Shown: one piece after another, positions 1-31,363 of the stretch
Position numbering within the stretch: position 1 is the first letter of the stretch
Layout of the letters: every line of letters begins with the position of its first letter
IMG/VR virus record: IMGVR_UViG_3300045988_116134
Span: 1-31,363 of that record
Source of the DNA: a virus
Strand: one strand, 5' to 3'
DNA: 31,363 nt
Notes under the pieces: model-generated
Seen by the model: only the letters and a program-made list of their open reading frames with translations
Told to the model about the DNA's origin: nothing
Database searches by the model: none
Position numbers and translations under genes: made by a program

Positions 1-141
1 ATATCTTTACGATGACAAGATTGTTATTTATTTTAATGGCTCTAACAGTGCGAATACTGTAGATTATGCGACTGTTTGTGAAGATTTAAAAAAATTTGAA
101 GCAGAAGAAAAAGTTCGCATACGGAACGCTATGCCCTGCCA
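1..141. repeat. Terminal overlap: bases 1-141 are identical to 31223-31363 (circular contig closure)
   Basis: Direct comparison of both ends found no mismatch. The integrase ORF reads continuously across the junction. Confidence 0.95.
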
Positions 142-1241: not shown

Positions 1242-1248
1242 TTTAAAA

Positions 1249-1278
1249 TAACTAGACGATAAGTCTGGCTATTTTTTT
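1249..1278 (+). terminator. Degenerate copy of the integrase terminator, downstream of the HTH gene
   Basis: TAACTAGAC-gataa-GTCTGGCTA followed by T7. The stem has one A.C mismatch and one G.U pair. Confidence 0.55.
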
Positions 1279-1318
1279 ATAATTTTTTGAAAAAATTAAA
1301 GAAATTTTGAAAAAACAC

Positions 1319-1347
1319 TTGACTTTATACTCTAATTAGTGTATAAT
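1319..1347 (+). promoter_or_regulatory. Sigma-A-type promoter of cassette 2
   Basis: TTGACT (1319-1324), 17-nt spacer, TATAAT (1342-1347). Confidence 0.7.
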
Positions 1348-1356
1348 ATAATCAAA

Positions 1357-1390
1357 GATAAGGAAAGGAAATAAAAAAACAATCCTTATC
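1357..1390 (+). promoter_or_regulatory. Leader inverted repeat, copy 2
   Basis: GATAAGGA - N18 - TCCTTATC, identical to 307..340. Confidence 0.45.
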
Positions 1391-1418
1391 AAAAAATAAA
1401 AAAGTGAGGAAAGTAACT

Positions 1419-3079: not shown

Positions 3080-5100
3080 TTTTTTAACTCTCCTTCCTTT
3101 GTCATTAAATAAGTTAATGCTGTAAATTCGGCGTCTGAATATTGATAAAAGCCTTCGTCTGCTGGATGTACGCAATCTTTACAATACTCAACTGTTTTTT
3201 CAGACCTTTTGTTTACTTTTGTATTTTCCATTGTCATATTGTGTAATACATCGACTTGACAACTCATTTGCACAAAAGTTACGTAATCGTAACTATTAGC
3301 AATCTCTTGATATAGTTTGTTTAAGTCATATACATATTTATTTTGGCGAACCTGTGGCATTGTGTTACCATACGATTTGCGATAATGAGGGTACATATAA
3401 TGATAGCTTTCAAGTATGATTTTGCAATTTGGAAAACCTATGTGTGTGTTTTCAATCAACTTTTTGGCTCTCGTTTTCAAGTCAGACCAATTAAATTTAC
3501 TTGCAAAAGCACCGTTTTCGTAATCGTTCCAACCTAGCAGAATTACAAGATAATCAAGTTGTGTTTCGTTCAAAGCGTTTTGGACAAAATGTTTCATTGA
3601 GATATTGTTGTAGCTATCAACCCAAAGATAGTTGTTTGGGTATGCAGATGGTAAAGTATTAGGATTTTCGGTGTAGTTTGCCCAGCTATATCCACCTGTT
3701 CCAGTGAATTTATTACCGCTACCTTGACCAATTGACCTACCAATTAGCTTTGTGTCTGTTAAAGTAGTTTGACTTATTAAGTTAGCAGTTTCACCACTCC
3801 TTACTGCCATACCTGTAAAGCTATCACCAAGATACATAATGCGTCTTGTAGTATTAGCAAGTGCTGATATGTCAGCAACATAGATTTTAACTCTTTTACT
3901 GTCAATCACCTTGCCAAATCTGTCTAAAAGTTGAAATAATGGTAAATCGTTAGGTTTTCTCAAAGTCTCATCTGTGTAGTCAGCAGGACATTTGATAGTA
4001 ATTTTGTCACTATATTCTGTAATATATCCTGACAAATTGACAAGTCTTACATTATATTTGTTCTCAACATATTCATAGCTGCTGTAGTACATCCCATATT
4101 TAAATAGTTCAAGTGTCCCGCCTTTTTGAATATAAAAAGCGTCCGGTAAATCAAGTTTACAAATTTCGTTTGCTAATGCATATCTTGTGTCATTTTCTGC
4201 GATTGTATTAATACTTTTTCCTTTGATATGTGCTTCTGCAATCTTACTAAAGTCCGTACCACCGTACCAAAGCCAAATAATGTACTTATATCCAGCGACA
4301 GGACTAAATATAATTTTGTTTTTGGTATCTGCAATAGGTTTGACAAACTTATCGTTAGTATCATATTCAAAAACACTAGCATATAATGTTGGTCTATCCG
4401 TTGTAATTATCACATTGCTATATTGTGATAGGTCGAGTTTATTTGTTATGAAAGCTGACCCATCTTTTTCTTCGCCGGTTGCTTTGTCAATTGAACCAAT
4501 TTTATAATTGTAATGTAGATTGTAATAGCCGGTCGAAGTTGTAGATATGTCTGTCGCATTTTGCTTTATGTTAGTTTCAGACGTGATAAGTCTATTGATA
4601 ATATCATCAGCACTTTTAAGCTTGTCAATATTATCAACAAGTGTCTGTACTCTATCAGCTTTATCTTCAATGTCTTTGATTTCGATTAGTGCGTCAAGCA
4701 ACTTTCCAAACTCTCGACTTGCAACAATTTCTGATTCATCAGAGATTACAGACTCAGCAACTTTCACAATAAAAGTTGCTGAAGTTACAAACTGTTGATT
4801 GTCTTGCAAGACAACTTCGCAATTCAGTAGTCCCGGCGTATCCAACATAATCTTAGTTAATTCAACTGTGATAACATTATTTGTTGTATTAACTACAGCA
4901 GTATTGACTGCTTTAGTTTTGTTATTAATACTTGCTTTGACTGTCGCTACATAGTTACTAGATAAGGTGATAGTATTTCCATTTTCTGTGAGAGTGATGT
5001 CGATAAATCTCGTCTTGCTGTCGCCCTGATGGGCATTGAGTACCGTAAACGCTCTAGTGTCATTAACATCTAGAGTGATTTTTTGATGTTGCAGTTGCAT
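3076..5100 (-). CDS. Receptor-binding/baseplate protein: BppU_N-like N-terminus plus C-terminal SGNH/GDSL hydrolase
   Basis: N-terminus KITLDVNDTRAFTVLNAHQGDSKTRFIDITL is BppU_N-like. SGNH blocks are present: YLGDSFTG, LGWNDY, DCVHP (DxxH). The position is after Tal. Confidence 0.7.
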   Translation of the reverse strand: MQLQHQKITLDVNDTRAFTVLNAHQGDSKTRFIDITLTENGNTITLSSNYVATVKASINNKTKAVNTAVVNTTNNVITVELTKIMLDTPGLLNCEVVLQDNQQFVTSATFIVKVAESVISDESEIVASREFGKLLDALIEIKDIEDKADRVQTLVDNIDKLKSADDIINRLITSETNIKQNATDISTTSTGYYNLHYNYKIGSIDKATGEEKDGSAFITNKLDLSQYSNVIITTDRPTLYASVFEYDTNDKFVKPIADTKNKIIFSPVAGYKYIIWLWYGGTDFSKIAEAHIKGKSINTIAENDTRYALANEICKLDLPDAFYIQKGGTLELFKYGMYYSSYEYVENKYNVRLVNLSGYITEYSDKITIKCPADYTDETLRKPNDLPLFQLLDRFGKVIDSKRVKIYVADISALANTTRRIMYLGDSFTGMAVRSGETANLISQTTLTDTKLIGRSIGQGSGNKFTGTGGYSWANYTENPNTLPSAYPNNYLWVDSYNNISMKHFVQNALNETQLDYLVILLGWNDYENGAFASKFNWSDLKTRAKKLIENTHIGFPNCKIILESYHYMYPHYRKSYGNTMPQVRQNKYVYDLNKLYQEIANSYDYVTFVQMSCQVDVLHNMTMENTKVNKRSEKTVEYCKDCVHPADEGFYQYSDAEFTALTYLMTKEGELKK

Positions 5101-19581: not shown

Positions 19582-19606
19582 ATCTGCTCAACTCCTTTCT
19601 GAAAAA

Positions 19607-19655
19607 GGGGAGGGGGGTCATACGCACGACCTGCGTCTTTTATCGAGCCCCTCCC
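19607..19655 (-). other. GC-rich nested hairpin followed by C+T5 on the minus strand, directly upstream of the terS SD
   Basis: GGGAGGGG pairs with CCCCTCCC (8 GC-only bp). An inner ACGCA/TGCGT stem sits in the loop. This is the only strongly GC-rich island in an AT-rich intergenic region. Confidence 0.6.
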
Positions 19656-19687
19656 TCGGTTCCACAATGGTAAATTTTGGTAAAAAA

Positions 19688-19996: not shown

Positions 19997-20123
19997 TTGC
20001 AACACCTCTTGCCATGACGGTTTAGGTGTGACCTCAAACCAGCCTAAAGGCCACACCCTATTGAGTCAACTATTAAGAAAACTATGAGTTGAAATCAATC
20101 AGTAGGCTTACTACCTTTTGATC

Positions 20124-20146
20124 TCATTATGATAATATCATAATGA
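20124..20146. promoter_or_regulatory. Perfect 23-bp palindrome TCATTATGATA-A-TATCATAATGA
   Basis: Two 11-bp arms with no mismatch, in the intergenic region upstream of the HNH/terS late genes. Confidence 0.6.
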
Positions 20147-20148
20147 AA

Positions 20149-20172
20149 TAGAACTTGTAGAACAAATAGAAC
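20149..20172. repeat. Three TAGAAC direct repeats with 9-bp periodicity
   Basis: TAGAAC occurs at 20149, 20158 and 20167, immediately next to the palindrome. Confidence 0.55.
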
Positions 20173-20919: not shown

Positions 20920-21168
20920 CTATTTCTGTACTTGTGTTCTTGCAAGTACGATATATTTTTCTATCTCTTCTCTTGCTTCAGCAAAACCACGACAGACTAC
21001 GCAGTAGTAGCCTTGATTTGCTAGTTCAGTTAACCATTTGTTTTGCAAATCGGTAGTTTTGTTCTTACCCCATTTCATTTCGATATACAGCCCGAAAAAG
21101 CCCCCTCTAGCCACCGGTAGAAATAAATCAGGCACACCAGGCTTAACACCTTCACATTTTAGATTCAT
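20920..21168 (-). CDS. VRR-NUC (PD-(D/E)xK) nuclease domain protein, apparently N-terminally disrupted
   Basis: GVKPGVPDLFLP...GLYIEMKWG...NQGYYCVVCRG matches the VRR-NUC core. It has a poor SD, while an 18-codon stub with a good SD lies upstream at 21173..21229. Confidence 0.6.
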   Translation of the reverse strand: MNLKCEGVKPGVPDLFLPVARGGFFGLYIEMKWGKNKTTDLQNKWLTELANQGYYCVVCRGFAEAREEIEKYIVLARTQVQK

Positions 21169-21247
21169 AGCCTCAAGTTTGTTTCTGCTGTTCTGCCTCT
21201 GTTGAGGCTATTCCTTTATATTTTGTCATTCTCAAATTCCTTTCTTC

Positions 21248-25573: not shown

Positions 25574-25825
25574 TTATTCTTTAATGATTTTCTTTGTTAT
25601 TAGATAATTAACTGTCAACTCTTCAAACTTTTCTCGTTCCTCATCAGAGATGGGGTAACGAGTAGCCAGTCCATTTTTAAACTTGTACCGCTCATATATT
25701 TTTCTTATATATGAGTTGTTCAAATTCAGTTGATACCCATACGGGTTATCAGTTAAAAAAATAGGACAACCTTTGCAAGTAACATCGATATTCTTCTGTA
25801 CGATTTTATCTATATTACTTGACAT
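25574..25825 (-). CDS. Hypothetical protein, 83 aa
   Basis: ORF with an AAAGGA SD. I recognise no family. Confidence 0.5.
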   Translation of the reverse strand: MSSNIDKIVQKNIDVTCKGCPIFLTDNPYGYQLNLNNSYIRKIYERYKFKNGLATRYPISDEEREKFEELTVNYLITKKIIKE

Positions 25826-25872
25826 TCGGCTATCCTTTCTTTATAATTTAAGTGACGGTTAATAAACCGCTC

Positions 25873-25890
25873 ACTTTTTTATTTTTGAGT
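25873..25890 (-). promoter_or_regulatory. 18-mer ACTCAAAAATAAAAAAGT, second copy
   Basis: Exact copy of 22224..22241, upstream of the 83-aa gene and flanked by hairpins. Confidence 0.5.
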
Positions 25891-25923
25891 GTGAGGACTA
25901 TCAAATAATTTTGGTGGTCCTCA

Positions 25924-26235
25924 TTATTTTTTTGCAATCAACTGCAAAAACACACTATTCTTAATGTTAGTATCTTCTTGTAGTTTGATTCCAAAAATCT
26001 TCTCAAATGCTTCTTTGTTGCTCTTGACTTGCAATCTTGCTACGCAGTATCTGATAGCATTTCTCACTGCCTGCCAAGTTCTAACTTTGTATTTGCGCTG
26101 AATTTCCTTGTACAAACCTTCCATAGGCTTGTGCGGGTGTTCATGCAAGATGTTAACAGCTTCAAGTATGTATCCGTACCCCTTGAAATTCGGAGTTATT
26201 CCGATACTACACAATATCTTTTCTGTTTCATTCAT
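25924..26235 (-). CDS. Stand-alone Spo0A C-terminal (Spo0A_C) DNA-binding domain protein, 103 aa, no receiver domain
   Basis: Aligns by eye to B. subtilis Spo0A residues ~160-260: IGITPNFKGYGYILEAV vs IGVPAHIKGYLYLREAI; AVRNAIRYCV vs VERAIRHAIE; KIFG vs SLFG; NSVFLQLIAKK vs NSEFIAMVADKL. The ATG at 26235 follows a GGAGAA SD. Confidence 0.85.
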   Translation of the reverse strand: MNETEKILCSIGITPNFKGYGYILEAVNILHEHPHKPMEGLYKEIQRKYKVRTWQAVRNAIRYCVARLQVKSNKEAFEKIFGIKLQEDTNIKNSVFLQLIAKK

Positions 26236-26518
26236 TTTTCTGTTCTCCGTATATTTGTAATGCATTTTCATATGATTCTTCAATTATTTTGAGCATATCG
26301 CTTGCACTAAATTTTTGACAAAAAGTCAAAAATAACTGAGTCGTTAGTCCAACAAGTTCGTTCTTAGTTCCAAACATTGACGTAGCACAGAACATTTGCT
26401 CTGCGTTGTCGTCGAGAATTCCTGTAACTAGCACGAAAGAGTCATTCTTATTCCTTATTGACTTGTCGACTTCTTCGTGTATTACTTTGTGTTTTAATTC
26501 ATCCATTGTGTTTATCAT
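26228..26518 (-). CDS. Hypothetical protein, 96 aa
   Basis: The ORF's stop overlaps the next start by 8 nt. Confidence 0.5.
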   Translation of the reverse strand: MINTMDELKHKVIHEEVDKSIRNKNDSFVLVTGILDDNAEQMFCATSMFGTKNELVGLTTQLFLTFCQKFSASDMLKIIEESYENALQIYGEQKNE

Positions 26519-27884: not shown

Positions 27885-27913
27885 ATTATATATCATTGTA
27901 AATCATTTGTCAA
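27885..27913 (-). promoter_or_regulatory. Early lytic promoter (leftward), full consensus
   Basis: The minus strand reads TTGACA - 17 nt - TATAAT. Confidence 0.75.
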
Positions 27914-27946: not shown

Positions 27947-27975
27947 TTGACAACTGATTTTATATATAGTATAAT
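27947..27975 (+). promoter_or_regulatory. Repressor promoter (rightward), full consensus
   Basis: TTGACA (27947-27952) - 17 nt - TATAAT (27970-27975), then an AAGGAGGTGAG SD and the ATG at 27997. Confidence 0.75.
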
Positions 27976-27996: not shown

Positions 27997-28362
27997 ATGA
28001 CTACTGCTGATAAAATTAGAAGAGTGCGAAAACATTTCAAACTTTCTCAAACAGAGTTCGGCGAGAAGCTCGGTGTATCTGTTAACTTTATTGGTAATCT
28101 TGAACAAGGCAGAACAGAATTAAAGCCTTTAACGGCTCAGCTAATAAGTAGAGTTTTCGACGTCAATCCTTTATGGCTGGAAACCGGTGAGGGCGAAATG
28201 CTTATTGAGACTGATAGAGTTATTACTGATGAACTGTCGAAAAAATACAAATTGACGAACTTACAAGAAAAAGTTTTACTTAAGTATCTAAATTTAGATA
28301 CTAAACAAAGAGAAATAGTTGCTCAAGCAGTAGAGTTGTTGGCCAACGATTCTAAAGACTAA
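27997..28362 (+). CDS. CI-like XRE-family repressor, 121 aa, no S24 peptidase domain
   Basis: KLSQTEFGEKLGVSVNFIGNLEQGR is an HTH. The gene is divergent from the early operon. Confidence 0.85.
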   Translation: MTTADKIRRVRKHFKLSQTEFGEKLGVSVNFIGNLEQGRTELKPLTAQLISRVFDVNPLWLETGEGEMLIETDRVITDELSKKYKLTNLQEKVLLKYLNLDTKQREIVAQAVELLANDSKD

Positions 28363-28370
28363 AAGAAAAA

Positions 28371-28408
28371 TGGGAAGGACAAATTTGTCCTTCCCATTTT
28401 GTTATTTT
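28371..28408. terminator. Bidirectional terminator after the repressor gene
   Basis: TGGGAAGGACAAA/TTTGTCCTTCCCA is a 13-bp palindromic stem. A T-rich run lies downstream and an A-rich run upstream. Confidence 0.8.
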
Positions 28409-28418
28409 TATAATGCTT

Positions 28419-28544
28419 TCATTCTCTGTAAATCATCACTATGTACTTGTATATGCGTTCGAGTTGAGAAACTTTCGCAACTTTTGCGACAATCTTAATA
28501 AGTTCAACGATGTTTTTAACGAGTTTTGTCTTTTTGCCAAGCAT
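28419..28544 (-). CDS. Unannotated 41-aa basic amphipathic peptide gene
   Basis: Hand translation gives MLGKKTKLVKNIVELIKIVAKVAKVSQLERIYKYIVMIYRE. A GGAGGT SD lies 7 nt upstream. The gene has its own promoter and ends at the bidirectional terminator. Confidence 0.5.
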   Translation of the reverse strand: MLGKKTKLVKNIVELIKIVAKVAKVSQLERIYKYIVMIYRE

Positions 28545-29843: not shown

Positions 29844-31363
29844 ATGAATGAAAAAATTAACGCGGTGATTTATGCTAGATTTTCTAGCCACAACCAACAA
29901 GAGCAGTCTGTTGACGGTCAAGTCCGTTACTGCACTCAGTATGCAGAAGCTCACAATATGCGAATAATCGGCACATATGTTGATAGAGCCATGTCCGGAA
30001 CTAATGATAACAGACCCGACTTTCAGCAAATGATTAAGGACAGTGAAAACAAGCAGTTTCAGGTGGTCCTCGTTTGGAAGTTTGACCGTTTCGCTCGCAA
30101 TAGATATGATAGTGCTTTTTATCGTAGAGCATTAAAAAATAACGGTGTTACTGTCACATCAGTGACGGAAAGCGTGGGTGAAGGCTCAGAGGCTATTATA
30201 CTTGAGGCTATCCTTGACGCCATGGCAGACGCTTACTCTAAGCAGTTAGCAGAAAATGTTAAGCGTGGAATGAGAGAATCAGCGTTAAAATGTCAGACCA
30301 TCGGCGGGTGTACTCCACTTGGCTATGATGTAGTTAATAAAATGTATGTAGTCAACAAAGAAGAAGCCGAAATCGTTAAGTACATTTACAGGGAGTACGC
30401 AGACGGCAAAGGCAAGAAAGAAATCATAACTGAGCTAAATAACAGAGGCTACAAGACTAAGAGAGGCAAGAAATTTACAATCACAAGCTTGTCGCAACTG
30501 TTAAAAAATAAAAGGTATATCGGTATCTATGTATATAAGGATATGGAAATCAAAGACGGTATTCCGACGATTATTGACGAAGAATTATTTTATAAAGTTC
30601 AAAAAGTGGCGCTAAGAAATAAGCGTGATGCCTCACGCAAGAAAGCAAAGGTTGAGTATCTGCTGAGCGGTAAACTGTTCTGCGGCCACTGTGGTGAAGC
30701 TATGTTGGGTGAATCTGCTGTAAATCATAGTGGATATAAGTACTACTACTATGTATGTGGCAGCAGAAAGAAAAAATTGAGAATTTGTGACAAAAAGAGA
30801 GAAAAGAAAGAAGGCATTGAAGAATACTGTGTTCGTCAGGCTCTCAGCTTTTTCTCTGACAGAAAGAATTTGCAGTTGATTGCAAGAAAGGTTGTAGATT
30901 TATACAACTCAGAAATTGACAACGGACAAGTTGAAGTTCTAGAGCAGAATAAGATTAAGCTAGAAAAACAACTTGATGAACTTACTAACGCTCTTGTTAA
31001 AACATCAAATGTTAGAGTTTTATCAAAACTAAATGAACAAATTAATACTATTGACGAGCAACTATCTACTATAGATATAGAAATAGCAAGAGAAAAATCT
31101 CTTGCTACGGCTAAAATGTCTGTAGATGATGTTGTTGGATTTGTAGAAAGTCTGATCCGAGGAGGTGACATTAAGGATAATAAATTTAAAAAACAAATTA
31201 TTAATGTATTAATTAATAGGATATATCTTTACGATGACAAGATTGTTATTTATTTTAATGGCTCTAACAGTGCGAATACTGTAGATTATGCGACTGTTTG
31301 TGAAGATTTAAAAAAATTTGAAGCAGAAGAAAAAGTTCGCATACGGAACGCTATGCCCTGCCA
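29844..31363 (+). CDS. Large serine recombinase (integrase), N-terminal 506 codons; continues at base 1
   Basis: Starts MNEKINAVIYARFSSHNQQEQSVDGQ (catalytic Ser region). Other features are VVLVWKFDRFARN, a recombinase domain, a CGHCG...C zinc-ribbon region and a coiled coil. The ORF has no stop before the window end, so it is missing from the ORF track. Confidence 0.92.
   Translation, partial: MNEKINAVIYARFSSHNQQEQSVDGQVRYCTQYAEAHNMRIIGTYVDRAMSGTNDNRPDFQQMIKDSENKQFQVVLVWKFDRFARNRYDSAFYRRALKNNGVTVTSVTESVGEGSEAIILEAILDAMADAYSKQLAENVKRGMRESALKCQTIGGCTPLGYDVVNKMYVVNKEEAEIVKYIYREYADGKGKKEIITELNNRGYKTKRGKKFTITSLSQLLKNKRYIGIYVYKDMEIKDGIPTIIDEELFYKVQKVALRNKRDASRKKAKVEYLLSGKLFCGHCGEAMLGESAVNHSGYKYYYYVCGSRKKKLRICDKKREKKEGIEEYCVRQALSFFSDRKNLQLIARKVVDLYNSEIDNGQVEVLEQNKIKLEKQLDELTNALVKTSNVRVLSKLNEQINTIDEQLSTIDIEIAREKSLATAKMSVDDVVGFVESLIRGGDIKDNKFKKQIINVLINRIYLYDDKIVIYFNGSNSANTVDYATVCEDLKKFEAEEKVRIRNAMPC
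31223..31363. repeat. Terminal overlap, second copy
   Basis: Identical to 1..141. Confidence 0.95.

Follow-up and report, generated by a model that had tools for sequence, protein, structure and literature searches.

A receiver-less Spo0A effector-domain protein with an altered recognition helix in a temperate phage of gut Ruminococcoides

Phages of the human gut carry spo0A genes reduced to the effector domain, without the receiver (Schwartz et al. mBio 2023, PMC10294663). The same work proposed, as a hypothesis, that the products of such genes mimic Spo0A, altered host sporulation being one of the effects considered. The steering of gut Bacillota sporulation by phages through borrowed regulators is a hypothesis, and the literature searched contains no experimental test of phage-carried receiver-less Spo0A proteins. 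In the databases, viral entries of UniProt such as A0A8S5TVN9 and A0A8S5TNE3 carry the label "Sporulation initiation factor Spo0A C terminal", and BFVD holds four uncultured-phage proteins with the same fold that UniProt names Spo0A C-terminal.

The whole stretch of DNA analysed here, hereafter the window, comprises the 31,363 nucleotides of the IMG/VR virus record IMGVR_UViG_3300045988_116134. It encodes a 103-aa protein that has the fold of the Spo0A effector domain and lacks the receiver. Like the phage-carried spo0A homologues of Schwartz et al., this protein is effector-only, phage-encoded, and found in the gut, with a host from a spore-forming lineage of the Bacillota. A preliminary description of the window had proposed that such a free effector domain lets the phage push or block host sporulation, and this general hypothesis is the one already published (Schwartz et al. 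2023, PMC10294663). With the Spo0A proteins of Bacillus and Clostridia the phage protein shares the six-helix fold with its helix-turn-helix (HTH), whereas it lacks the REC domain and the phospho-acceptor and is encoded by a phage. Its model superimposes well on the four BFVD proteins (Foldseek TM 0.78-0.82), yet the identity with them is only 20-22%. The clade to which it belongs differs from the other phage-carried Spo0A_C proteins by an R-N pair in place of E-R and by an additional residue in the turn of the HTH. What is new here is a recognition helix that, judging from the sequence comparisons, appears to have been re-specified, and this argues against taking mimicry at 0A boxes for granted. 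Labelling Spo0A_C phage genes as sporulation genes may thus overstate their role.

A stand-alone domain with the Spo0A effector fold

The gene is on the minus strand of the window, where it runs from an ATG at 26235 to a TAA stop codon at 25926-25924.

25924..26235, minus strand: stand-alone gene of the Spo0A_C fold, 103 aa, stop codon included (evidence from ORF, Pfam, PDB, and AlphaFold2 with Foldseek)
26244..26247, minus strand: Shine-Dalgarno sequence GGAG, 8 nt upstream of the ATG of the Spo0A_C gene (read from the sequence)

The start at 26235, which gives the 103-aa product, is supported by this Shine-Dalgarno sequence. An alternative TTG start upstream, at 26283, would lengthen the protein by only 16 residues, and 103 aa is also the length of six homologues (P0001 and P0004-P0008).

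The protein had been aligned by eye with the Spo0A C-terminal DNA-binding domain along its whole length, and the profile searches bear this out. Pfam Spo0A_C (PF08769) is matched with 56.3 bits (E 3.5e-15), the gathering score being 25, and the alignment places residues 5-103 on profile positions 2-103 of 104. A phmmer search of all PDB chains returned only 1fc3 (E 1e-5) and 1lq1 (E 9e-5), both of them crystal structures of the Spo0A effector domain, over residues 6-103; the identity to this domain is ~26% over its whole length. The conserved residues include G12, G19, Y22, Y42, V57, A60, I61, R62, F81, G82, and N93. The motifs said to flank the recognition helix are also real (I11-G12, P15, K18-G19-Y20, Y22, E25-A26, and F81-G82). 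The AlphaFold2 model, made from a 60-sequence alignment that included true Spo0A fragments, has a pLDDT of 94.7 and six helices (residues 3-10, 18-32, 38-49, 54-69, 71-81, and 93-102). When this model is compared with the PDB, Foldseek retrieves 1fc3 (TM 0.83) and 1lq1 (TM 0.79) with rmsd of 2.1-2.4 Å and probability 1.00, and no fold beyond these two, as the next match has E > 2.

The absence of a receiver was likewise confirmed. The protein is a single domain, with neither REC nor a phospho-acceptor Asp, and the three ORFs upstream of the gene (96, 105, and 136 aa) have no significant match to Response_reg or to any other Pfam family. Against the NCBIfam equivalog for Spo0A (TIGR02875) the protein scores 32.9 bits, below the cut-off of 200, and the PHROGs families that match it are listed as of function unknown. 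Among nine relatives, dN/dS is 0.03-0.12 with dS of up to 1.4, which indicates strong purifying selection on a functional, constrained protein.

The recognition helix and the sites it would read

For the comparison of the recognition helix with the rest of the family, an exhaustive phmmer search gave 173 cluster representatives at E below 1e-3, from which 213 domain instances were extracted and aligned to one HMM. The helix corresponds to residues 54-69, and R58-N59 occupy the positions of B. subtilis E213-R214. Three independent alignments agree on this register, with V57, A60, I61, and R62 as anchors. The frequencies in three columns, taken over the ~200 instances of the family outside the clade, are the following.

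Column of B. subtilis E213: E in 83% of the family outside the clade; R58 in the clade
Column of B. subtilis R214: R in 78% of the family outside the clade; N59 in the clade
Column of B. subtilis R217: R in 85% of the family outside the clade; R62 in the clade

Among 150 aligned family proteins, the column of residue 58 contains E in at least 90%. The E-R pair as such is found in 59 of the 64 stand-alone representatives (those of 135 aa or fewer) outside the clade, and the R-N pair is invariant in 15 relatives, i.e., in 11/11 clade members and 4/4 IMG/VR relatives. In the turn of the HTH, where 94% of the family have no insertion, the clade carries one additional residue, R52. Hence, the protein departs from the Spo0A signature V-E-R-A-I-R-H (B. 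subtilis 212-218) and reads V-R-N-A-I-R-Y instead; the Spo0A signature SRVERAIRHAIEVAW becomes QAVRNAIRYCVARLQ, with 4 of 15 positions identical. The likeness between AVRNAIRYCV and VERAIRHAIE pointed out in the preliminary description therefore holds for the V, A, I, and R that are kept and fails for the E-R pair, which is lost.

The nearest phmmer relatives outside the clade (P0011 and P0013) carry E-R, so that R-N is a derived change, fixed in the clade. True Spo0A proteins (E ~1e-4) are more distant from the phage protein than other stand-alone or tandem proteins are, and the gene is therefore not a recent truncation or capture of a host spo0A. As to the function of the replaced residues, in the 2002 structure 1LQ1 base-specific contacts are reportedly made by R214 with G2 and by E213 with the cytosines at positions 4 and 5 of the box, an assignment that here also draws on the conservation statistics. 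If these contacts are right, the base readout of the clade protein should change, because Glu is replaced by Arg and Arg by Asn.

These changes bear directly on mimicry. According to this explanation, the free effector domain binds the host 0A boxes without passing through the phosphorelay and switches on or blocks the Spo0A regulon, which lets the phage impose sporulation or prevent it. We regard this as rather unlikely for the protein of the window. The fold is the same, the scaffold of the helix is conserved (V57, A60, I61, and R62), and the host lineage sporulates. The VERAIRH signature is retained by the majority of the other stand-alone homologues from phages, which could act in this way. 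However, one finds the equivalents of E213 and R214 to be invariantly R and N in the clade, together with the insertion in the turn; the R-N pair is derived and fixed; and the protein is no recent capture of a host gene. The competition at 0A boxes suggested earlier is weakened by the same replacement. On the other hand, constitutive DNA binding, also put forward in the preliminary description, is a fair expectation, since the isolated DNA-binding domain of Spo0A binds its real targets without phosphorylation, a result that likewise favours mimicry (Rosenbusch et al., PMC3485338). The same authors state that Spo0A reads G2, C4, and G5 of TGTCGAA specifically.

The consensus TGTCGAA is observed twice in the window, for 3.3 expected, both times inside coding sequence, and it shows no conservation across ten relatives (from none to five boxes per relative, at non-homologous positions). 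The relaxed box TGNCGAA is mildly over-represented, with 21 copies against 13.7 expected (sd 3.7; 2 of 100 shuffles reach 21), and these copies are scattered through coding DNA. Boxes in the phage genome were thus rejected as targets for want of both consensus enrichment and conservation in relatives, and the earlier idea that the protein reads 0A boxes on its own genome loses weight. Two further searches were made for target sites. Of the 7- and 8-mers enriched in the intergenic DNA (1.6 kb), all were A/T-rich words, and around the switch a search for repeats yielded the repressor operators as the only candidate sites. The word CTTTTGCGA, of which there are exactly two copies, both between the repressor and exonuclease genes, was rejected as a binding motif: its one-mismatch copies are not above chance (13 vs 11.3). 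One of the two copies lies inside a small ORF encoding VAKVAKV, which explains the repeat in part.

The explanation that we prefer, and to which we give about an even chance, is that the protein is a regulator with a target other than the canonical 0A box. It would be a single-domain DNA-binding transcription regulator, expressed within the early lytic operon. Because there is no inhibitory receiver domain, it would bind DNA constitutively once made, and because two base-reading residues are changed, its binding site would differ from the canonical TGTCGAA. It would control particular phage or host promoters of its own in early infection or induction, and with an altered site it would be a regulator of the phage programme and not a simple stand-in for, or competitor of, the host Spo0A. 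Against this explanation stand the failure of the above searches to yield a candidate motif and the mild excess of relaxed boxes. A Spo0A-style contact with sigma-A at the promoter would be possible, because helix E keeps N73, F81, and G82, which match B. subtilis N228, F236, and G237, three residues that we take to lie within the sigma-A-activating region of Spo0A.

The conservation of these residues in helix E would also suit a protein-protein decoy, for which DNA is not needed: the domain would titrate a partner of the host Spo0A, such as region 4 of sigma-A or sigma-H, or else, at tandem sites, the effector domain of the host Spo0A itself. We consider this highly improbable. Within the clade, no part of the protein is conserved more strictly than the recognition helix, T53-V65 being near-invariant, which argues that DNA reading is under selection, and other positions of the sigma-A-activating region differ (S231 to A, S233 to E, and V240 to L). 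The presence of a Spo0A_C domain does not imply binding to 0A boxes, as the residues that should read the box have been exchanged in this clade. The contrast between the R-N variant and the canonical E-R phage homologues bears on the question of Spo0A mimicry versus mere use of the fold across the phage family.

Many members of the family are tandem receiver-less arrays of 2-7 Spo0A_C domains (P0011, P0016, P0021, P0033, and P0076). For example, P0033 has four such domains in 454 aa and P0076 has seven in 959 aa. The triple-domain P0011 (L075, 6557-7843) has canonical VERACRHAIE helices; its neighbours are the housekeeping genes asnB, rpmF, der, and plsY, and it is chromosomal and not part of a phage. 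In such proteins, the covalent linkage of Spo0A_C domains could replace the phosphorylation-driven dimerisation on tandem 0A boxes.

The early operon and a convergent RNA unit

The gene had been described as early, and it does lie within the early operon of a temperate phage. This operon is on the minus strand, and the Spo0A_C gene comes after a variable group of small ORFs and is immediately followed by a conserved block that consists of an 83-aa ORF, the genes of PcfK-like and PcfJ-like proteins, a 323-aa ORF, and the replication initiator. The operon starts at a switch with the following elements.

27885..27913, minus strand: consensus sigma-70-type promoter TTGACA-17-TATAAT (12/12 match), which heads the early operon
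27947-27975, plus strand: perfect promoter of the HTH_3 repressor, facing the early-operon promoter
27870, 27907, and 27947: three operator-like repeats around and between the switch promoters
27997..28362, plus strand: CI-like HTH_3/XRE repressor (Pfam HTH_3, E 2e-13), divergent from the early operon

The divergent layout of repressor and early operon is kept in 8 relatives. There are three different repressor types among the relatives, yet the Spo0A_C protein is the same. A similar placement is found in other phages, which are similar to one another and unrelated to the clade. In these, stand-alone Spo0A_C genes (P0217, P0228, and P0230) are part of the early replication/recombination operon, each directly after SSB and downstream of a divergent HTH_3 repressor, and one of the three adjoins a gene of the sigma-70 family. 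Because this placement is shared, Spo0A_C genes are present in the early operon of at least two unrelated groups of temperate phages.

The stop codon of the Spo0A_C gene is followed by a gap of 98 bp, which contains an antisense unit (25819-25934, plus strand) with two parts.

25819..25847, plus strand: perfect sigma-70-type promoter (12/12 match), pointing against the early operon
25853..25934, plus strand: predicted antisense RNA of ~80 nt, with a 5' hairpin, a U-rich linker, a terminator hairpin, and a U-run

This unit was found in all relatives, where the -35 element of its promoter is invariant and the -10 element is either TATAAT or TATACT. Its fold has an MFE of -28.5 kcal/mol (z = -6.5 vs shuffles). 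Among seven distinct relatives, 7 of the 20 base pairs show compensatory double changes and one pair is broken, in one sequence. The terminator stem exists in two completely different versions, each of them fully complementary, and the first hairpin shows a double change from G-C to A-U. In Rfam, no family reached its gathering score for the window, and the antisense unit had no meaningful match. From these features, the unit looks like an RNA of ~80 nt that is convergent with the early operon. The predicted 3' end of this RNA would cover the stop codon and the last codons of the Spo0A_C gene, only ~10 nt of the ORF.

The layout resembles that of the lambda OOP RNA opposite cII. In both cases a gene for a transcription factor of the early operon, here a predicted one, stands between the switch and the replication genes, and a short convergent RNA, here also predicted, lies over its 3' end. 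The analogy is one of layout only: there is no sequence or fold kinship with CII, and no CII-type sites were identified. Both Spo0A and CII activate promoters from a position at the -35 region. One special case of our preferred explanation, a regulator with its own target, is accordingly that the protein acts on the lysis-lysogeny decision in the manner of CII, i.e., that it would activate the establishment promoters of repressor and integrase while the convergent antisense RNA would keep its mRNA in check, in the way that OOP acts on cII. Its position past the switch and immediately ahead of the replication module would suit this role, and so would the conserved promoter-hairpin-terminator unit antisense to its 3' end, with its compensatory changes. 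Nevertheless, we find this special case distinctly unlikely. No direct-repeat sites are seen beside the weak plus-strand promoters, and the overlap of the RNA with the ORF is short. One would have to account for the association of the same Spo0A_C protein with three repressor types, and the other phages with stand-alone Spo0A_C genes (P0217, P0228, and P0230) have no such intergenic unit.

A fuller version joins the helix with the RNA. In it, the clade would have re-specified the Spo0A recognition helix (R for E213, N for R214, and the insertion in the turn) for a new site, and the product would be a phosphorylation-independent regulator, either of lysis and lysogeny or of the passage from early to late expression, checked by an OOP-like antisense RNA. 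We hold this combination to be quite doubtful; if it were true, it would be a circuit of the CII/OOP type made from the fold of a sporulation regulator.

Genome, host, and other features of the window

The ends of the window are an exact direct repeat, the prefix being identical to the suffix.

1..141 = 31223-31363: terminal direct repeat of 141 bp

Because of this repeat, the window is taken as a genome of 31,222 bp that closes into a circle, and the phage is a complete 31.2-kb temperate siphovirus. The genome carries a holin and an amidase endolysin, TerL, an HNH endonuclease, and a replication initiator of rolling-circle type, and it also encodes the PcfJ-like and PcfK-like proteins and a DEDDh exonuclease. 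The HNH endonuclease gene is upstream of a 127-aa ORF at the position of terS, and this ORF matches only a PHROG of unknown function. On the minus strand, at about 19600-19687, a hairpin that lies upstream of terS was dropped as a candidate terminator, with a fold z = -0.39 vs shuffles. A serine recombinase gene spans the junction of the circular genome. Homology with the prophage L001 stops at position 141 of the window, within the last codons of this gene, so that the C-terminus of the integrase is altered upon integration. We place attP at the 3' end of this gene, at ~141-181, and its counterpart in L001 at about 3531-3571.

Relatives of the phage, with 84-98% protein identity and the same layout, are represented by ten clusters of proteins from gut metagenomes and by four contigs of IMG/VR. 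The host junction is visible in six fetched relatives, and 6/6 are integrated at one site, beside DUF4358 and uvrD/pcrA. The prophage matches thereby give the host: the flank matches Ruminococcoides intestinihominis CLA-AA-H171 at 100% identity, and the G+C content of the genome of this species, 34.3%, is like that of the window. Spores are formed by two relatives of R. intestinihominis, namely R. bili and R. bromii. The host is thus a Ruminococcoides (R. bromii group), and its lineage is spore-forming as judged from R. bili and R. bromii. No close relatives were found among GTDB genomes, and the host is named from the prophage flank instead. A megablast of 19 kb against the INPHARED phages gave no match, and tblastn of the 103-aa protein gave one weak match (23% identity), in an unannotated human faecal phage. 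To the phages already known to carry receiver-less Spo0A effector domains, this case adds a complete genome with an identified, cultured host species, from the keystone starch-degrading R. bromii group.

Several other features of the window were recorded.

182-367 and 1242-1403, plus strand: two near-identical cassettes of ~150 bp, each with a terminator hairpin, a strong promoter, and a 5'-UTR hairpin
28419-28544, minus strand: small ORF of 41-47 aa (MLGKKTKLVKNIVELIKIVAKVAKVSQLERIYKYIVMIYRE), with its own promoter (28632-28604, minus strand) and RBS, converging on the repressor gene
28367-28400: perfect palindrome of 34 bp, a bidirectional terminator, at the end of the MLGKKTKLVKNIVELIKIVAKVAKVSQLERIYKYIVMIYRE ORF
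20920-21247, minus strand: VRR_NUC nuclease gene, apparently 5'-truncated (82 aa, profile positions 56-115)
20120-20150: near-perfect palindrome TCATTATGATAATATCATAATGA, in a 119-bp gap upstream of the HNH-TerL late genes

The promoter of the cassettes reads CACTTGAC...TGTATAAT, and their 5'-UTR hairpin reads GATAAGGAAAGG...CCTTATC. They precede plus-strand genes by attP, namely a 78-aa ORF, a 146-aa ORF, the gene of a 63-aa XRE HTH protein, and a 68-aa ORF; the 146-aa ORF resembles DUF6782, a putative metallopeptidase family, weakly and below the threshold. These genes look like morons expressed in the lysogen. At the place of the MLGKKTKLVKNIVELIKIVAKVAKVSQLERIYKYIVMIYRE ORF, L068 and L069 have a 46-aa gene, and other relatives have an ion-channel gene in the region. 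VRR_NUC is 133 aa long in L001 and L003, and it is shorter in the window because ~83 bp are deleted relative to L001 (14551-14634). The palindrome TCATTATGATAATATCATAATGA may be an operator of the late operon.
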